Shown: positions 8,175-14,999 of the stretch, piece by piece
Position numbering within the stretch: position 1 is the stretch's first letter
How the letters are laid out: each line of letters starts with the position of its first letter
IMG/VR virus record: IMGVR_UViG_2563366959_000014
Source of the DNA: a virus
Lineage: Duplodnaviria > Heunggongvirae > Uroviricota > Caudoviricetes
Reading direction: 5' to 3' (one strand)
Length of the DNA stretch: 14,999 bases
The notes under the pieces: model-generated
What the model was told of the DNA's origin: nothing
What the model saw: the letters and a program-made list of their open reading frames with translations, nothing else
Databases searched by the model: none
Program-made: the position numbers and the translations under genes

Positions 8175-8447
8175 TTAGCTGTCCTGGTAATTGCGCCATA
8201 TTTCATCACCAGCACCATCTATACCCATTTCGGCATAAGTGCGATTGACTGCCTTTCTCAGGTCTCCGAAATTATCAGGCGGCTCCGGTGGCCTCTGTGC
8301 CTTCCTGGAACATTCCAGCCGTCGCATCGTGATGTGATGCCGTTCCTTGTCTGTCTCCACCAGCATCATGACTTCACCCCATCGCGCCGCCGCCCTCCGG
8401 TAAAATCCTTTCGCTTCGAGTTCTTCCGCTATGCGGTCATGTACCAT
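8175..8447 (-). CDS. PerC-family small transcriptional regulator (90 aa)
   Basis: N-terminus MVHDRIAEELEAKGFYRRAAARWGEVM matches the conserved AE.LE..G.YRRA..RW signature of PerC/Pch proteins as I recall it. ATG at 8447 with GAGGGGGTGA Shine-Dalgarno just after the SSB stop. Confidence 0.6.
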   Translation of the reverse strand: MVHDRIAEELEAKGFYRRAAARWGEVMMLVETDKERHHITMRRLECSRKAQRPPEPPDNFGDLRKAVNRTYAEMGIDGAGDEIWRNYQDS

Positions 8448-8457
8448 CGTCACCCCC

Positions 8458-8868
8458 TCAGAACGGAATATCATCACCGTAAGGGTCATCGCCTCCCGCT
8501 GGTGGCTGATTACCCTGTGTGCCTGTGGTTTTGCGTCTGCTGCCGCCTGGTCGCACCGTTTTCGCACTGATTACGCTGTCGGCAATGACCTGATAACCCT
8601 GACGCGTCTCCCCGTTCTGTCCGGTCCACTGGCTTACCTGCATCGTGCCGGATACGCTGATTACGTTGCCTTTCTCATGTCCTGCCAGTTGGTCGGCCTG
8701 TTTGCCAAATGCCAGGACCGACAGCCATAACGTAGCCTGCCCGTCCTGCGCCTGACTGCATGGCAACGATACCGCCATACGCGCCAGCGTCATCGGTGTG
8801 CCCTTGCTGGTCTGTTTTACCTGCGGGTCGTCCACCAGCCGCCCGTAAGCTGCAATTTGTGCTGTCAT
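8458..8868 (-). CDS. ssb: Single-stranded DNA-binding protein (SSB)
   Basis: OB-fold-like N-terminal region, a Gly/Gln/Pro-rich linker, and the canonical acidic C-terminal tip ending DDIPF. Confidence 0.85.
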   Translation of the reverse strand: MTAQIAAYGRLVDDPQVKQTSKGTPMTLARMAVSLPCSQAQDGQATLWLSVLAFGKQADQLAGHEKGNVISVSGTMQVSQWTGQNGETRQGYQVIADSVISAKTVRPGGSRRKTTGTQGNQPPAGGDDPYGDDIPF

Positions 8869-9712: not shown

Positions 9713-11530
9713 TTAATTTTTGCTATCGTCATTAGTGACCGATACACATGACGGCATCCAGTCTTCTGATTCCTCCGTCAGTGTCACGTTTGAACGCAAA
9801 CCGTGCTTCGTTTTCCGTTTCATATACTCCCTGCCATATTCCGCCATTGCCCCCGGCATATCTTTACCGAAGCGCGTCAGTGTTACAGGTTTACCAAACC
9901 CATGTGCCTTCATATAAGCCAGATAGGCATGATAGAGATACCTGCGCGGGCTGAATGGCACAATTTCAGCATTACCCACTAACAGGCCATCACACATTAC
10001 CGACGCCATGAGATAGCCGCAGAAGTCCACCAGCGAATCACCTTCACGCTTTATCGCGAGTGCTTCTTCTGATTTCTGCTGCTCATATAAAAGGCGTCTG
10101 GCTTCGTCCTGGTCAGCAAACCGTGTAAGCAGATGACGAATCACTACCGCCAGCTCACCTTCTATTTTTTCCGCCAGCATTGAATCGCGTTCGTTCTCCG
10201 GTACAACTTCCGAAAAATTGAATATCACCCGACGGCGCGAGATCCCCCCGCTGCGGTCACTGAATGACATGGCGTTATTGTTAACCGCCAGCACTACTGC
10301 CGGAATACGCGTTGAGTAGGGGGCTTTGTGTTTCGGGTCAATTGCCACCTTGTCACCGCCTGTAATGGCCTTAATTCCTGCCCCATCACCAGCGTAGCGG
10401 GTCATATCCGGCATGATAATCAGCGAAAAGCCAACCACTAACGCGCGTTCCCTTGCATCTTCCAGCGCCTTCATGCTTGCCGATACTGTGTTGGCCTTAC
10501 CCGCCAGCATGGTGCAAATCTCCGCCATCACGCTTTTACCACTTCCCCCTGGACCTGTTACCTCAATGAATAACTGCCAGTCGTACCGGTTCGCCAGCAC
10601 CATGAATAATGCAGCCAGTACGCGATCCGCCTTGCGGTCATTCTCAGCCACCGAACGGCGTAACCACTTCCAGAAATTCGGCGCATGTGTTGCCAGCGTT
10701 TCTCCCTCTGCTGGTGGGCTGAAAGGTAATTCACTGGCAATTAACAACCAGTCGTTTTTGTTATGCTCCCGAAAATCGCCTGTCCGGGTATCAAAAACAC
10801 CGTTACTGAATCCAATCAGGTTACGGGCTGTATTCCCCATTACAGGCAAACTTAACTTCATGGTATCGACCGCCGATTTAATGGCGTTCTGCGAATAGCT
10901 GATCTCCGCATCAATGAAAATCTGTGCCATAGCTCGCTGTAATTCTTTATCCTGTACTGGCTCCCATACAACGCCGTTGTAATAGTGAACAGTGTCAGAG
11001 TCAGCATGAATCGCCAGTTCACCGCCATAATGTGCCAGGAGAACTTCGCCGCGTTGACTTGCTCCCATCTGGTTAAGCGCCAGTGATGAAGCGTTATCGT
11101 CTTTTACCCGCTCTTTTTTCTTTACAGGCAGTTCAACTACCTTTTTCTTTTCCGCCTGCTCTGCCCGTTCACGTTCCAGATATTCGCGCCAGTTCTCCCG
11201 TTTCTGGCTGTGCATTCCTTCAGGGTAATAATCAGCATCCCTGACACCTGCCGCTGCCAGTTTCTGCCCGATGGTATTAACAAGCCCCGGACGCAATAAC
11301 CCCGCCTGGTAGAGACGCACGCGATAGCGTCCGTCCGGTACGATTTGCAGGTTGTCCAGTTCGGCAAGTTGTTGCTCTCCAAGCCAGACAGGAGGCACGC
11401 TGTCGCCAGCCAGTCGCCCGTCCTGTTCCTGCCACTGCTTCGCATGTGCCCACGCATCACTACCCGCAAAAATGATGACTTCCGTCATTTTGTCACGTGG
11501 CTGGTGTTTTAAATTTGGCGCTTTTTTCAT
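9713..11530 (-). CDS. Replication primase/NTPase, P4-alpha C-terminal-domain family
   Basis: 605 aa from the ATG at 11530 (MKKAPNL), which overlaps the upstream stop (ATGA) and follows a GGAGAG Shine-Dalgarno. Walker A motif GPGGSGKS and a Walker B-like hydrophobic stretch; followed by the iteron origin. Confidence 0.85.
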   Translation of the reverse strand: MKKAPNLKHQPRDKMTEVIIFAGSDAWAHAKQWQEQDGRLAGDSVPPVWLGEQQLAELDNLQIVPDGRYRVRLYQAGLLRPGLVNTIGQKLAAAGVRDADYYPEGMHSQKRENWREYLERERAEQAEKKKVVELPVKKKERVKDDNASSLALNQMGASQRGEVLLAHYGGELAIHADSDTVHYYNGVVWEPVQDKELQRAMAQIFIDAEISYSQNAIKSAVDTMKLSLPVMGNTARNLIGFSNGVFDTRTGDFREHNKNDWLLIASELPFSPPAEGETLATHAPNFWKWLRRSVAENDRKADRVLAALFMVLANRYDWQLFIEVTGPGGSGKSVMAEICTMLAGKANTVSASMKALEDARERALVVGFSLIIMPDMTRYAGDGAGIKAITGGDKVAIDPKHKAPYSTRIPAVVLAVNNNAMSFSDRSGGISRRRVIFNFSEVVPENERDSMLAEKIEGELAVVIRHLLTRFADQDEARRLLYEQQKSEEALAIKREGDSLVDFCGYLMASVMCDGLLVGNAEIVPFSPRRYLYHAYLAYMKAHGFGKPVTLTRFGKDMPGAMAEYGREYMKRKTKHGLRSNVTLTEESEDWMPSCVSVTNDDSKN

Positions 11531-11826
11531 TTCTGCTCTCTCCACGCGGCAATCATGTTTTTTAGTTCCTGTAGTTTTTTATCAACATCCATACATGACA
11601 CATGGTTATTTCTGGAAAGCGGGATTTCCCGCCTGAATCTGCTAATAAAGATCTCCACGTTCAGCGAACTAAGAAATGAATAGCCATCACGGATAAAATA
11701 CACTCGGTCAAACATCAGTTCTTTTACCGTTACTCTGTTACCGTTCTTATCCAGATAAATAGCGCCGGGGATAATTTGGGGGTGTGCATAACCGCTGGCA
11801 GTCAAGCCAGATAAATATGTTCTCAT
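11527..11826 (-). CDS. Hypothetical protein (99 aa), AT-rich
   Basis: ATG at 11826 with GGGGA Shine-Dalgarno; stop overlaps the primase start. No family recognised. Confidence 0.55.
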   Translation of the reverse strand: MRTYLSGLTASGYAHPQIIPGAIYLDKNGNRVTVKELMFDRVYFIRDGYSFLSSLNVEIFISRFRREIPLSRNNHVSCMDVDKKLQELKNMIAAWREQK

Positions 11827-11832
11827 GATTAT

Positions 11833-12153
11833 TTATCCCCGATTTAAATCAGTATTCGCTTTCTTTATAGCATTTAATGCATCTTTGGCATTTTCAATGG
11901 TGCACCGTAACGAAATATCAAACTGTCCAAGCATTGCCAGTAACAAACCGATATTACCCATATCAATGCGCATGGCCTTTTCGTCATATTCCTTATTTTC
12001 TGACGCATACCACATCAGGCTACCAATTGACGAAACAGCCATTGATATATTGTCAGTAGCCCCATCCGCAGCGGAATAAACCTTTTTAGCAATATCATGC
12101 TCACAGTTAAAATGCGGATTAATCAGGTACTGGTAATTGGTCATGTCAGTCAT
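11833..12153 (-). CDS. Hypothetical protein (106 aa), AT-rich
   Basis: ATG at 12153 (alternative at 12144), overlapping the 3' end of the upstream small gene. No family recognised. Confidence 0.55.
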   Translation of the reverse strand: MTDMTNYQYLINPHFNCEHDIAKKVYSAADGATDNISMAVSSIGSLMWYASENKEYDEKAMRIDMGNIGLLLAMLGQFDISLRCTIENAKDALNAIKKANTDLNRG

Positions 12154-12349
12154 GGCACACCCCCTGACGAATACGGGCGGCGAATACCATCACGCAGCCA
12201 GCCGGGGATTGCTGGCGTGCTTCCTGTTCGCTGCTGGCCTCAATGGTAATCACGCGCGGTTGTGCCGTGCTCAGGGCGATAAAACGCCAGATGTATTTAT
12301 TCAGGTTGTGCGAGTCCCGCCCTTGCGGGTGTGTGGTATGATTTCTCAT
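12146..12349 (-). CDS. Hypothetical protein (67 aa), first gene of the minus-strand replication operon
   Basis: ATG at 12349 with GAGGT Shine-Dalgarno at 4-nt spacing; this is the C-terminal 67 codons of a longer spurious ORF. Weak support. Confidence 0.4.
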   Translation of the reverse strand: MRNHTTHPQGRDSHNLNKYIWRFIALSTAQPRVITIEASSEQEARQQSPAGCVMVFAARIRQGVCHD

Positions 12350-12445
12350 AGCTACCTCGATACTTTCGCTATCGTTGGTGGTTAGAAGCCCGGTTAGTGT
12401 TAGCGCACTGCCGGGTTTCGTCGTTTCTGCACCTTGCGCCAACAA

Positions 12446-12499
12446 GGTGTTGAACACCAATTTAAACCCAGGTGTTAAACACGTCAAGTGTTGAACACT
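12446..12499. promoter_or_regulatory. Three palindromic operators (GTGTT-N-AACAC) in a divergent promoter region
   Basis: GGTGTTGAACACC at 12446-12458, GGTGTTAAACACG at 12471-12483, AGTGTTGAACACT at 12487-12499. The third overlaps a plus-strand -35-like TTGAAC (12491-12496), with a 17-bp spacer to a -10-like CATACT (12514-12519). Confidence 0.6.
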
Positions 12500-12548
12500 T
12501 ATTTTTTTTCCTGCATACTGCATTTGTTTTTTATGAGGGGTACACCAC

Positions 12549-12728
12549 ATGGCGACAAAAGCAGTAAACGCAAAATCACAAACCGTTGCGGCAAGGGTTC
12601 CGCATGAAGTTATGAACAATGTTGAGGCGGTAAAAATGCCTGGCGAAAGTACGGGGCAATTTGTTACTGCAGCATTAAAACGAGAAGTTGAATATCGCCA
12701 GCGGCGCAAGGCCAAAGAACCAGAGTAA
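12549..12728 (+). CDS. Ribbon-helix-helix (Arc/CopG-like) DNA-binding protein, 59 aa
   Basis: Not in the supplied ORF track (under 60 aa). ATG at 12549 with GAGGGG Shine-Dalgarno. TVAARVP (beta strand), HEVMNNVEAV (helix), GESTGQ (turn), FVTAALKREV (helix) fits the RHH pattern. Divergent from the replication operon. Confidence 0.55.
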   Translation: MATKAVNAKSQTVAARVPHEVMNNVEAVKMPGESTGQFVTAALKREVEYRQRRKAKEPE

Positions 12729-12785
12729 TCACCATCAGCGCCGTGGTGTAAGGTATTACGGCGCATTGCTATGCAGGACAACACA

Positions 12786-12959
12786 ATGACCGATAAAGAA
12801 TTGACCAAAACATTATCACCGGCACGGAAAAGACGGCGCAGAAAGATAGAGCATGAATCAGAAAGATTCGCGCCATGTGCTTTTGCCCTTGAGCAATTCC
12901 TTAAAGAGTACAGGGAAAAGCGCTCATTGCAGGTATGGCAACGAACTGAACCAGACTGA
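12786..12959 (+). CDS. Small basic hypothetical protein (57 aa)
   Basis: ATG at 12786 with AGGA upstream (alternative start at 12771); contains an RKRRRRK basic tract; followed by a terminator. Confidence 0.4.
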   Translation: MTDKELTKTLSPARKRRRRKIEHESERFAPCAFALEQFLKEYREKRSLQVWQRTEPD

Positions 12960-13054
12960 TAGCATTGCCCACCAGCCTGATAGCGACTATCATTGCCGTT
13001 CTTATGTTTGGGATCACACACACAAACGGCGCAGCGGGTTATCTGTTCAGAAAG

Positions 13055-13082
13055 GCGGCTCCATTTCGGGGCCGCTTTTTTT
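13055..13082 (+). terminator. Rho-independent terminator (plus strand)
   Basis: GCGGC / GCCGC stem followed by seven T, about 95 nt after the stop of the second plus-strand small gene. Confidence 0.6.
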
Positions 13083-13228
13083 ATGTCTGAAAAACCCCAA
13101 TTTTGTTGTTTTTCAGTTTCACCAGGGCGAACGAATCCCCGCCCACGTTCGGGCGCATATTCAATCTTCATGGTTATAGCTCTGTGTTCAGATGATTGAT
13201 GTGTGGCGGCTGCGTGCCGCCAGCGTGA

Positions 13229-13417
13229 TTAATGAACTGCCTTGCAGCTATCCTTCCAGGCCAGAACCTCGGATAAAGACCAGCCAACGGAACGACCGCC
13301 AAGTTTACGACGTGATGGGAATTGTCCGGCCTTTTCCATGCGGTAGCGACACGTACGGCTAAGGCCGGTTAGTTTTTCGCATTCTTTTTCACGTATAAAC
13401 CGATCAGTGCTTAACAC
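13229..13417 (-). CDS. alpA: AlpA-family regulator / excisionase-like HTH protein
   Basis: 62 aa; KLTGLSRTCRYRMEKAGQFPSRRKLGGRSVGWSLSEVLAWK fits the AlpA/Vis winged-helix pattern. GTG start at 13417 with AGGGGG Shine-Dalgarno at 5-nt spacing; lies downstream of the integrase. Confidence 0.8.
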   Translation of the reverse strand: MLSTDRFIREKECEKLTGLSRTCRYRMEKAGQFPSRRKLGGRSVGWSLSEVLAWKDSCKAVH

Positions 13418-13568
13418 TATTGCCCCCTTTCGTTTCTTAAAGAGTCATCAGGTGTCTTATTGTGTCGTATTGTTCCCGCTAGAGTGATGAATGGCAAATG
13501 TTGGTGGCGGATGGTTTACAGAAAGAGGAATAATCAGGATAAAATCATTTAAATTCATGTTAATACAA

Positions 13569-13599
13569 AGGCATAAAATCTCGTTTTATGCCTTTTTTC
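13569..13599. terminator. Hairpin with flanking A/T runs, likely terminator for the integrase transcript
   Basis: AGGCATAAAA / TTTTATGCCT stem with a 5-nt loop; TTTTTT follows on the plus strand and a U-rich stretch follows on the minus strand. Confidence 0.45.
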
Positions 13600-13689
13600 T
13601 CACGCTTTAAAGCGTGATTCGCTAATGTATAAAAAACCAGTAATATAATAAAAATCAGCGACTTATAAATCTGTATGCTTTTTCGCCTC

Positions 13690-13740
13690 TTGTTCGTGAT
13701 TGTTCCACGTTGTTGCACATTGTTTCACGTTGTATCTGTT
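13690..13740 (-). promoter_or_regulatory. Copy C of the composite site, embedded in five tandem 10-bp repeats (TGTTnCACnT)
   Basis: Consecutive decamers TGTTCGTGAT, TGTTCCACGT, TGTTGCACAT, TGTTTCACGT, TGTATCTGTT; reverse complement contains the exact AACAACGTGGAAC. Lies between the integrase stop and alpA. Confidence 0.45.
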
Positions 13741-13781
13741 CGCATATCCAGTATGCGCATACTGAAAAAACCCGAAAAAAA

Positions 13782-14999
13782 TTATTTTCTTCTGGCTACG
13801 GGTAGCGTGGTTACGTTTTCATGTGCTCCCGCCAGTATCCCTAACCGCTCCGTCCACATATCCAGCGCATCACGTTTCGCATCCAGATAACGGGAATGGT
13901 TATAGACTCGTTGCATCCCTGGCATCTGATGACCTGTAAGCTGCTCCACGACGTGAGGATCCGCGCCTAAATCGTTCAGCATCGTTGTAAAGGTGCGCCG
14001 GATGTCATGCAGTGACCATTGAGGGTGTTTTAGCCTCCTGTGCGCTAATCTGCCGTACTGCGATACGCTGGCCTCCTGTTTCACTTCCCCCAGCAATAAG
14101 CCCGTGTGCCTGTTCTGCTCCACCAGCTTCATGACAAACGGCAGGATCGCTTCCGGTATGGGCCGGAATATTGCGACCTTCGTTTTGCTGTGCTCCTTCG
14201 GAACGGTCCATAGCATTTCCGTAAAATCCCACTCCCCGATCTCCGATAACCTCAGTTCTACCGTTCTGGCACCGAAGACAATCAGGAGGCGGATTAACGC
14301 GACGTAGTAAGGGGAAAATATTTTTTTATCCAGTGCCTGCAATAACTCGCCAAGTTCTTTGGTGCTTAAGACACGCTCGCTTATATCCGGTTTTTTCCCA
14401 ACGTCCGCAACGTTCAGATCGTCCAGAACGTTGCTGATTGCATAGCGCCGCCTACGGCAGAACTTAAGCGCCTGTTTGCACGCCTGTAGCACGAATCCGG
14501 CAGTAACAGGCGTTCGCTTTGCCACCTGGTCAAAACAAGCCAGCCAGTGCCGTAGCTCGCATTTATCCAGCGGCATAGCACCAATGTGCTGTATTACGTG
14601 ATTATTAAGTCGCCTTTTCAGGGCGATATAATCCACGCGGTTTTCCTTTACGTAAGACTCAAGCCAGTAGGTAAGCGCATCGCCAACCGTTACGGGCTTT
14701 AACGCTTCCTGTACGGTGTAATTCATCTCATGACGTGGATTTTTCCCCTCAGCCAGCCATGCGCGACACTGTGCGGCTTTTTCCCTGGCTGCTTTCAGGC
14801 TCAGATCAGGATAACTTCCCAGCTTAATGCGTTCGGGTCGTGTCTCCCTTCCCGTTCCGGCCCTGTATGTGAAATACCATGTCAATTTCCCTGATGTTAA
14901 ATATTTCACGCTCAGGTTTCCGCCATCACTATAAAACGTGTTTTTCTCAGCTGGCTTACCATGAAGTTTCCTTAGCAATGTATCGCTCAGTTTGTTCAT
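13782..14999 (-). CDS. int: Tyrosine integrase, P4-type
   Basis: 405 aa; N-terminal arm-binding-like region (YSDGGNLSVKY...WYFTYR) and a C-terminal catalytic region with the conserved HDIRRT and a tyrosine near the C-terminus. ATG is the last three bases of the window. Confidence 0.9.
   Translation of the reverse strand: MNKLSDTLLRKLHGKPAEKNTFYSDGGNLSVKYLTSGKLTWYFTYRAGTGRETRPERIKLGSYPDLSLKAAREKAAQCRAWLAEGKNPRHEMNYTVQEALKPVTVGDALTYWLESYVKENRVDYIALKRRLNNHVIQHIGAMPLDKCELRHWLACFDQVAKRTPVTAGFVLQACKQALKFCRRRRYAISNVLDDLNVADVGKKPDISERVLSTKELGELLQALDKKIFSPYYVALIRLLIVFGARTVELRLSEIGEWDFTEMLWTVPKEHSKTKVAIFRPIPEAILPFVMKLVEQNRHTGLLLGEVKQEASVSQYGRLAHRRLKHPQWSLHDIRRTFTTMLNDLGADPHVVEQLTGHQMPGMQRVYNHSRYLDAKRDALDMWTERLGILAGAHENVTTLPVARRK

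Follow-up and report, generated by a model that had tools for sequence, protein, structure and literature searches.

What keeps a phage-inducible chromosomal island (PICI) of a Gram-negative bacterium silent in its host? These satellites are widespread and disseminate genes for virulence and defence; the activator AlpA is all that has been published on their regulation, no repressor is known, and the founding paper calls the existence of one unclear (PMC6092414). The question is raised by a 14,999-nt stretch of DNA (IMG/VR record IMGVR_UViG_2563366959_000014, the whole of which we call the window), which is a capsid-forming PICI of the EcCIEDL933 type inserted in Escherichia coli tqsA. Between its leftward operon, headed by a small icd-like gene, and a rightward gene for a 59-residue protein of the YlcI/YnfO family lie three copies of a short palindrome. 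We propose that this region is an early-control module in which the 59-residue protein, predicted to have a ribbon-helix-helix (RHH) fold, represses from three operators (O1-O3), the two forming an exchangeable cassette onto which a SymR-like antisense RNA and an eta-like reading frame add further layers, and we put the probability of this reading at roughly 70%. On this sequence evidence, the protein would be a good candidate for the repressor that Gram-negative PICIs have so far seemed to lack.

Palindromic sites and the 59-residue protein

The window contains exactly three copies of the 11-mer GTGTTNAACAC, at 12447-12457, 12472-12482 and 12488-12498, and dinucleotide shuffles of the window hold 0.02 copies on average, with none of 200 shuffles reaching three. 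The copies are spaced 25 and 16 bp from centre to centre and lie between the minus-strand icd-like gene and the plus-strand 59-residue open reading frame (ORF; coordinates in Table 1). The initial annotation had placed three 13-bp palindromes of the form GTGTT-N-AACAC between the minus-strand replication operon and a plus-strand RHH gene of 59 residues, and this layout stands, with icd-like heading the operon that contains the primase. The count of three exact sites also stands, as does the 13-bp palindrome for O1 and O3, whereas O2 is a perfect palindrome only as an 11-mer.

The palindromes overlie what, from their hexamers and spacing, are two back-to-back sigma-70-like promoters, one leftward (P_L) and one rightward (P_R), so that three adjacent sites stretch across two divergent start regions in the manner of a lambda-type operator. 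The operator nearest the RHH gene overlaps its -35, as had been noted initially. A TTGAC -35 stands at the place of P_L in 25 of 25 loci examined, with a TAnnnT-like -10 at the 17-nt offset in most, and in nearly all loci a TATACT or CATACT hexamer precedes the ATG of the RHH gene by 33-38 nt. Five loci of the class of the window, from four genera (Escherichia, Edwardsiella, Kosakonia and Pectobacterium), agree in every base of O1 and O2 but not in the spacer and flanks, and operator-type sites are confined to the control region of each locus. A fourth site with one mismatch, at the alpA start (13407-13417), has no counterpart in any relative and was set aside as chance because it is not conserved. 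An inverted repeat, CACCTTG-N-CAAGGTG at 12425-12454, overlaps the left arm of O1, has similar repeats in other classes, and would form a hairpin at the extreme 5′ end of the P_L transcript.

To these sites we compared 31 loci from GTDB genomes and 80 from IMG/VR, together with the prototype EcCICFT073 itself. The layout of int, alpA and RHH gene facing an icd-like/primase operon is shared by about 105 loci in more than 10 genera and by EcCICFT073, and the gene order does not vary: int and alpA share one strand, the RHH gene converges on alpA, and beyond it come the control region, the Icd-like gene and the primase. Counted upstream from the RHH start, every locus has two copies of its 11-mer, at about 102 and 77 nt; next to the second stands (G/T)TCAA, which on the other strand reads as the leftward promoter's TTGAC -35. 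A third copy directly follows the rightward -10 in most classes and falls on the -35 in the class of the window, to which this position is particular.

Across the roughly 105 loci we observed 22 distinct arm/strand variants of the RHH protein, which group into some 10 specificity classes; a single site core goes with each class, with zero exceptions (Table 2). The variable residues cluster at positions 11-15, with the N-terminal arm at 4-8, in an otherwise invariant protein, and the site core tracks residues 11-15 of the beta strand rather than AlpA, Icd-like, orf57 or the primase. Because the site sequence matches the beta strand across all these loci, we consider the pairing of RHH protein and site to be very likely.

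The same conclusion is suggested by natural mosaics. The window and EcCICFT073 are 93-100% identical over icd-like and the 5′ half of its leader (12180-12389) and over orf57 (12780-12959), and only 36-66% identical over 12390-12690, a stretch made up of the sites, both promoters and the part of the RHH gene that encodes residues 1-47; AlpA is 92% identical between the two islands, and the sites differ (GTGTTGAACAC vs GTGTGGCCCAC). EcCICFT073 (loci L035, 474-1053, and L036, from E. coli CFT073) has the same divergent RHH/Icd-like module, with the specificity QALKAR and GTGTGGCCCAC. The reverse case is the island of Edwardsiella hoshinae (L002, 3800-4180), in which the RHH protein is identical over 57 matched residues and O1-O3 are identical to those of the window, while AlpA is 33%, Icd-like 56%, the primase 42% and the integrase 24% identical, a pattern that we read from the sequences as module exchange across genera. 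In L019 the primase is 86% identical and the sites are different, and in L025 AlpA is 70% identical and the sites again differ. These mosaic and swap comparisons exclude AlpA, Icd-like, orf57 and the primase as readers of the sites, and they define the unit of exchange, which is a cassette of about 300 bp that joins the sites to the RHH reading head, passes between satellites as a whole and exists in at least 10 specificities. Of 5,426 complete E. coli genomes, 581 carry the module or a close variant that covers at least 80% of 12340-12728. The RHH and icd-like genes of EcCICFT073 have late-added locus tags (C_RS30120 and C_RS30125), which may be why these small genes were not considered in the original island study.

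The 59-residue ORF is a real conserved gene. Its product matches the NCBIfam model NF041551 over its full length (model positions 1-42) at 59.7 bits, where the curated cut-off is 30 (E 2.1e-16), in agreement with its name in RefSeq; it also matches PHROG 949 and has 74 homologues, among them proteins of Escherichia, Salmonella, Klebsiella, Pectobacterium, Serratia, Proteus and Xenorhabdus. Over its first 50 codons we counted 10 and 7 synonymous changes and no non-synonymous change against the Edwardsiella copy and another E. coli copy respectively, indicating purifying selection. The predicted single-chain model matches a ribbon-helix-helix fold, as the initial annotation had supposed, with an N-terminal beta strand (about residues 10-17), helix A (19-28), a turn at G32-E33-S34 and helix B (35-56) in a domain of about 45 residues. 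The turn is of the G-x-(S/T/N) type and is invariant in 31 homologues, and the best structural matches of the model are the RHH antitoxins TacA, Rv0298, CopA_SO, ParD, VapB and HicB. A weak hhalign alignment sets R16-P18-E20 over R13-P15-E17 of Arc, a register in which the outward-facing strand residues would presumably be 12, 14 and 16. The domain spans residues 9-50 and is followed by a basic tail of nine residues, with no cleavage, sensor or ligand domain.

This subfamily belongs to satellites and not to true phages, as a tblastn search of 50,697 phage records returned a single match, in a 16.5-kb 'phage' that is probably itself a satellite. YlcI (prophage DLP12) and YnfO (prophage Qin) of E. 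coli K-12, known as DUF3950, share the NCBIfam N-terminal domain family with the RHH protein of the window, and K-12 YlcI (L119, 6252-6446) has the same pattern of strand, helix, G-x-(S/N) turn and helix; it differs in its setting, between ybcW and nohD in a lambdoid prophage rather than in the early-control region of a satellite. Lambdoid helper phages might carry relatives that cross-talk with the satellite protein. In the freely accessible literature that was searched, YlcI and YnfO are named only as accessory genes, with no functional study of YlcI, YnfO, DUF3950 or a PICI RHH protein, and the function that we propose for the family is new to that extent.

Table 1. Positions of the control-region features and of neighbouring genes in the window
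Feature	Position	Strand	Description and basis
Operator O1	12446-12458		GGTGTTGAACACC, perfect 13-bp palindrome; adjoins the leftward -10 on its downstream side and covers the predicted start site
Operator O2	12471-12483		GGTGTTAAACACG with flanks; only the core GTGTTAAACAC (12472-12482) is a perfect palindrome, of 11 bp; in the P_L spacer, abutting the -35
Operator O3	12487-12499		AGTGTTGAACACT, perfect 13-bp palindrome; overlaps the P_R -35 and touches the P_L -35
Leftward promoter P_L (predicted)	12459-12487	-	-35 TTGACG (12487-12482), 17-nt spacer, -10 TAAATT (12464-12459); promoter scan
Rightward promoter P_R (predicted)	12491-12519	+	-35 TTGAAC (12491-12496, within O3), 17-nt spacer, -10 CATACT (12514-12519); read from the sequence
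RHH gene, 59 residues, YlcI/YnfO family	12549-12728	+	Shine-Dalgarno GAGGGG (12535-12540); own -10
SymR-like cis-antisense RNA (predicted), about 78 nt	12349-12428	+	overlaps the ribosome-binding site and start codon of icd-like
Candidate antisense-RNA promoter	12334-12342	+	extended -10 TGgTATGAT inside icd-like codons 3-5; inferred from reading the sequence
icd-like, 67 residues	12146-12349	-	heads the leftward operon; NF033153 (phage_ICD_like), E 1.7e-19; RefSeq
Stop-free frame, 341 codons	12146-13171	-	in phase with icd-like and alpA; antisense through orf57, the RHH gene, both promoters, the operators and the leader
orf57, 57 residues	12786-12959	+	second small gene, 3′ of the RHH gene; identical to CFT073 WP_000130015.1; PHROG 21027
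alpA, known activator of Gram-negative PICIs	13229-13417	-	PF05930, E 1.2e-16; 92% identical to EcCICFT073 AlpA
Integrase	13782-14999	-	RefSeq annotation
D5-type primase-helicase	9713-11545	-	Pfam
PerC-family regulator	8175-8567	-	PF06069, E 3.6e-43; inside the satellite

Table 2. Specificity classes, by residues of the RHH beta strand and core of the cognate site
Strand residues	Site core	Loci
QT(V/I/L)AAR (class of the window)	GTGTT(G/A)AACAC (GTGTTGAACAC)	54
(K/R)KLEAR	GTGT(C/T)AGCCAC (GTGTCAGCCAC)	22
Q(A/S)LK(A/S)R	GTGTGG(C/T)CCAC (GTGTGGCCCAC)	13, including EcCICFT073
QSVTAR	GTGTCTTACAC	
KR(I/F)D(A/V)R	GTGT(C/G)GGACAC	
KKIDVR	GTGTCAGACA(C/T)	
QK(L/V)Q(A/T)RA	GTGGA(C/T)TCCAC	
QKIQARA	CTGGATTCCAG	
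QKMSAR	CTGGCACCCAG	
QKTSVR	GTG(G/A)(T/C)GGACAC	

A predicted antisense RNA and the long minus-strand frame

Two features that the initial annotation did not include share this region, a predicted SymR-like RNA on the plus strand and a conserved open frame on the minus strand. The RNA consists of a first hairpin (about 12349-12384), a terminator hairpin (12385-12419) and a U-rich tail, with a conserved single-stranded linker between the hairpins that reads UUGGUGGUUAGA in the window and UUGUGGUUAGA in an alignment of 24 loci. The alignment folds into the two hairpins with compensatory changes in 16 of 24 pairs, and none of 500 shuffles reaches any of the five measures that we used. The structure belongs to the plus strand, on which 96.9% of cells pair vs 85.2% on the minus strand, where the 68 G-U cells of the plus strand become A-C mismatches; in the window itself the minimum free energy is -36.5 kcal/mol (z -5.6) for the plus strand and -20.5 (z -2.1) for the minus strand. 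The hairpin at 12385-12419 was considered as a terminator or attenuator of the leftward mRNA and ruled out, its U-tract and G-U pairs being on the plus strand only. A -10-like hexamer is found in relatives at a place equivalent to that of the candidate promoter within icd-like.

The closest known RNA is SymR of E. coli K-12 (RF01809), the antisense regulator of symE. The Rfam SymR model matches the plus strand of the window at 12350-12422 with 33.3 bits, where the gathering score is 61, and matches the homologous place in loci L008 (40.4 bits) and L014 (32.1 bits); conversely, a covariance model built from these loci (R1) recovers the symR gene of K-12 where it is annotated (33.2 bits, E 3e-5). 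Since the scores are below the gathering score, we call the RNA SymR-like and not a member of SymR. SymR is a two-hairpin RNA of about 77 nt whose promoter is situated within the opening codons of symE and which is antisense to the ribosome site and start of that gene. The two RNAs have in common the two-hairpin form, the linker UUGUG(G/A)UUAG and the loop GUGUU(A/G)GCGCAC; the predicted RNA of the window likewise starts near or in the first codons, covers the 5′ end of its target and ends at an intrinsic terminator just before O1. The target and the context differ, being an Icd-like gene in a mobile satellite and not symE; a further parallel is that symE, too, is under a protein repressor, LexA. 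The SymR-like RNA is not in Rfam as such and has no annotation. As to other structured RNAs, C4 and isrK had no match at E<=1 in 11800-13800, and the int-alpA RNA motif (RF02996) was not detected in the window; only two related islands have it, in the int-alpA interval and with scores that exceed its gathering threshold (L003, 6853-6921, and L005, 6893-6961, both on the minus strand).

On the minus strand the long frame of Table 1 can be followed further, from the alpA start at 13417 to the icd-like stop at 12146, through 424 codons with a single stop, which is alpA's own. The inclusion of alpA in the frame is a feature of the window and not generally of other loci, but openness across the cassette is general: one stop-free minus frame spans -185 to +180 of the RHH start in 69 of 82 distinct sequences and in 18 of 19 beta-strand classes, the other two minus frames have on average 6.1 and 9.2 stops, and when 185-nt control regions are shuffled, an open frame of any kind is left in only 7%.

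We propose, from the arrangement of the sequence, that the long frame is the analogue of eta of phage P4 and icd-like that of kil, in which case the long frame would be translated. In P4 the two genes are nested, with the early promoter internal to eta; translation of eta is coupled to that of vis and prevents immunity-specific termination (PMC10111431). The 137-residue 'cI ORF' of P4, downstream of the alpA homologue vis, carries an Icd-like domain at its C-terminus (NF033153, E 7.8e-21, residues 85-132), and the same family is found at residues 293-336 of the frame 12146-13171 of the window, making icd-like by its sequence a homologue of the C-terminal domain of the P4 kil/eta ORF. The PHROG label 'transcriptional repressor' for the Icd-like family is inherited from the old 'cI protein' annotation of P4. 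The two regions thus share a homologous order of int, alpA or vis, a long ORF with an Icd-like end, and primase, and in both the long frame starts just after the alpA homologue and contains the early promoter. They differ in how immunity is arranged, for P4, which has an internal promoter P_LE, uses a sense-strand RNA, CI, of the type that pairs with seqA/seqC, and this RNA causes premature termination, whereas the equivalent stretch of the window holds a protein gene on the opposite strand that is a predicted repressor, its operators and a predicted antisense RNA; the predicted structured RNA is on the strand opposite to that of the P4 CI RNA.

A working model and its alternatives

These elements suggest how the module might work. 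RHH dimers would read the 11-13-bp GTGTT-N-AACAC sites with their N-terminal beta ribbon, so that occupancy of O1 and O2 would shut off the near-consensus P_L, the likely driver of icd-like, the primase and probably the packaging genes, and occupancy of O3 on the P_R -35 would place RHH synthesis under negative autoregulation. Transcripts that leak from P_L would then meet the SymR-like RNA of about 78 nt, which may pair with the icd-like ribosome site and start codon and block translation, leaving an untranslated leader prone to Rho-dependent termination and polarity before the replication genes, by analogy with P4 and with P1 c4/icd/ant. Upon helper induction, AlpA-dependent transcripts from upstream would cross the cassette while the long frame is translated; such read-through could bypass repression at P_L, resist both polarity and the antisense RNA, run antisense over the RHH gene and collide with transcription from P_R. 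The geometry fits, as at every locus alpA and the RHH gene converge. Helper-dependent expression of AlpA is the induction step in EcCICFT073 and EcCIEDL933 (PMC6092414 among other sources). In its fullest form, in which the cassette is the maintenance or 'immunity' repressor of Gram-negative PICIs, comes in at least 10 interchangeable specificities, is induced by AlpA read-through that in a single step bypasses P_L, uses the eta-like frame to resist polarity and override the SymR-like RNA, and silences the repressor convergently, and represents a protein gene that has replaced the CI RNA in a P4-type scaffold, the model is tentative and we think it somewhat unlikely that every part will hold.

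Several observations weigh against assigning the RHH protein this role. A profile search of PDB sequences with it gave no relevant match to a solved RHH protein, and a Pfam scan of its 59 residues gave no RHH family and only a spurious, sub-threshold match to Med10. The SymR scores fall short of the Rfam gathering score (33-40 vs 61 bits), and outside the class of the window the antisense RNA has only a weakly defined promoter. Over-expression of AlpA alone induces EcCICFT073 (PMC6092414), which carries the module, and the RHH protein is thus not insurmountable for AlpA and may be only a fine-tuner. Co-variation of adjacent DNA segments can come from linkage, and a product of the antisense frame would co-vary with the sites by construction, since that frame lies in the same cassette; linkage by itself is nonetheless insufficient, because the window and EcCICFT073 differ only in the cassette.

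The initial annotation interpreted the region as a lysogeny-type switch, which in its lambda-type form would be a bistable circuit with two opposing divergent regulators at a shared tripartite operator and a helper phage that inactivates the RHH protein. Operator-like palindromes on both promoters bear out part of this idea, with three sites between divergent promoters and a regulator gene on one side, and the gene for Stl, the master repressor of Gram-positive PICIs, similarly diverges from the replication operon, with a helper protein relieving the repression (PMC6092414). The second antagonist is missing, however: the first leftward gene is an Icd-like/Kil homologue, and family searches detected no DNA-binding domain in icd-like or orf106. 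A protein of 59 residues with no sensor, ligand or cleavage domain also offers no means of inducible inactivation, the third site, which here lies on the -35, follows the -10 in other classes, unlike the graded OR1-3 of lambda, and AlpA expression is the step shown experimentally to induce the prototypes. A bistable switch seems to us improbable, and the earlier term only partly right for what looks, from its sequence, like one autoregulated repressor cassette. The resemblance of the RHH model to antitoxins points in another direction, to an antitoxin or antitoxin-like protein of an addiction module whose toxin would be the co-transcribed orf57 or the divergent Icd-like protein and whose palindromes would serve toxin-antitoxin autoregulation. 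In its favour, cell-division inhibitor is the annotation given to Icd-like proteins, SymR itself acts as a type I antitoxin RNA, and orf57 lies 3′ of the RHH gene on the same strand; but the protein ends about nine residues past its domain and has no C-terminal toxin-binding tail of the type II kind, orf57 is missing from many loci in which alpA directly follows the RHH gene, and RHH and icd-like are divergent rather than in one operon, with O1 and O2 on the promoter of the whole replication operon. We judge this explanation to be quite improbable.

Were the RHH gene an incidental neighbour, the palindromes could instead bind AlpA, the primase or another initiator at origin iterons, or a helper-phage protein. 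AlpA is needed for downstream expression in EcCICFT073 and PICI origins consist of repeats (PMC6092414), and AlpA of Pseudomonas is reported to bind an element within a promoter (PMC9371919). Yet AlpA at 92% (CFT073) or 70% (L025) identity goes with different sites and at 33% (Edwardsiella) with identical ones, the primase behaves likewise at 86% and 42%, the PICI origin lies downstream of pri (PMC6092414), and only the RHH beta strand tracks the sites, which leaves this alternative very improbable. The last reading to be weighed makes the long minus-strand, Eta-like ORF the functional gene, the 59-residue ORF a by-product of its wobble frame, and the repeats coding or RNA features. It draws on the openness of that frame in 69 of 82 sequences, on its occasional annotation in part by the pipeline PGAP, and on a ratio of non-synonymous to synonymous substitution rates (dN/dS) that at short distance is as low as in the RHH frame. 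That ratio cannot separate the strands at short distance, however, because the wobble positions of the two frames coincide, and at larger distances the corresponding ratio of proportions (pN/pS), at 0.36 and 0.23 in the RHH frame and 0.54 and 0.33 in the antisense frame, is the lower in the RHH frame. The translation of the long frame is rich in Cys, Ser and Thr, does not look protein-like and has no family match beyond the Icd-like end; other loci do not conserve its N-terminal 149 residues, and PGAP labels its pieces inconsistently as a pseudogene, an extended Icd-like protein, 'ash family' and a BRO-N fragment. The RHH frame, by comparison, has curated family models, a confident model that matches RHH structures, a conserved start, Shine-Dalgarno sequence and stop, and its own -10. 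We give this reading very little credence, and we continue to favour an RHH repressor with its own operators, to which the long frame would add a further layer.

An RHH repressor acting in this way would have parallels among known systems. The immI region of phage P22, studied by Susskind, Sauer and co-workers, is said to combine the RHH repressors Mnt and Arc with the promoters Pant and Pmnt and the antisense RNA sar. Small RHH proteins on palindromic operators over close divergent promoters, with negative autoregulation, are reportedly a feature of P22 and are predicted for the window, as is an antisense RNA against the ribosome site of the gene 3′ of the repressed promoter, and the beta strands can be aligned weakly in the register of Arc. 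There is no detectable sequence homology between the two, the window has one RHH protein and P22 two, the operon under control serves satellite replication and packaging rather than an antirepressor, and the module of the window is antisense inside a long ORF. The niche that we propose for the RHH protein is that of Stl/Rpr in the Gram-positive PICIs (staphylococcal pathogenicity islands), where the gene of the repressor and the excision-replication operon are likewise transcribed divergently. Stl proteins are of the helix-turn-helix type and far larger. Helper-phage proteins relieve Stl by binding to it (PMC6092414), whereas the 59-residue RHH protein has no room for a partner-binding domain; Gram-negative PICIs also need AlpA.

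Judged by the literature that could be searched, three further points would each be new: a repressor candidate in Gram-negative PICIs, at least 10 natural specificity cassettes, and a repressor gene nested antisense in a conserved eta-like frame. The module is present in both of the experimentally used prototype lineages, and if our reading is correct it would allow a direct test of satellite silence and of hetero-immunity between co-resident islands, give the DUF3950/YlcI/YnfO family a function, and supply tiny orthogonal repressor-operator pairs (about 10 classes) for PICI-based delivery vehicles. The antisense RNA and overlapping frame would tie PICI control to P4, P1 immI and symE/SymR, in a compact natural case of three regulatory layers within the same 400 bp.

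The surrounding island

The 900 bases around the control region are 100% identical to a stretch of E. coli SCPM-O-B-9504, and in the RefSeq annotation of the identical island there, an element of about 15 kb splits tqsA into two halves. By RefSeq and Pfam the island has int, alpA and a primase together with its own capsid, protease, portal, connector, HNH, TerS and TerL genes and no tail genes, which is the gene set of a capsid-forming PICI at the expected size of about 15 kb. The minus-strand order is integrase, AlpA, icd-like, orf106, DUF4222, primase-helicase, SSB, PerC, major capsid, protease, portal, connectors, HNH, TerS and TerL, and the leftward operon runs from icd-like through orf106, DUF4222 and the primase to the SSB, PerC, capsid and terminase genes. 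The alpA gene lies upstream of this operon and is co-oriented with it. The RHH gene is the sole annotated plus-strand gene of the island in RefSeq, under the name 'YlcI/YnfO family protein'; orf57 has no annotation in the source genome, where a minus-strand 'pseudogene' is called in its place, and in Xenorhabdus loci it is absent, the RHH gene being directly followed by alpA. The satellite also contains a PerC-family regulator; repression of the locus of enterocyte effacement has been reported for a PerC-like protein of the PICI EcCIMP1 (PMC11773190).

The region between the integrase and the RHH gene contains further repeats and hairpins. At least four tandem 10-nt units of the form TTGTTnCAC(G/A) (CGTGnAACAA on the minus strand) occupy 13690-13739, between the integrase stop and the alpA promoter, and may be arm-type sites of the integrase or binding sites of AlpA or an excisionase. 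A terminator-like hairpin with an A/U tract follows int at 13550-13631 on the minus strand (GGCATAAAA...TTTTATGCC TTTGTATT), and another lies about 150 nt downstream of alpA at 13043-13136 on the same strand (GCGGC...GCCGC CTTTCTG); the second could be the point of read-through for AlpA-dependent transcripts. Both hairpins give weak, sub-threshold Rfam matches, to BSnc120 and STnc50.

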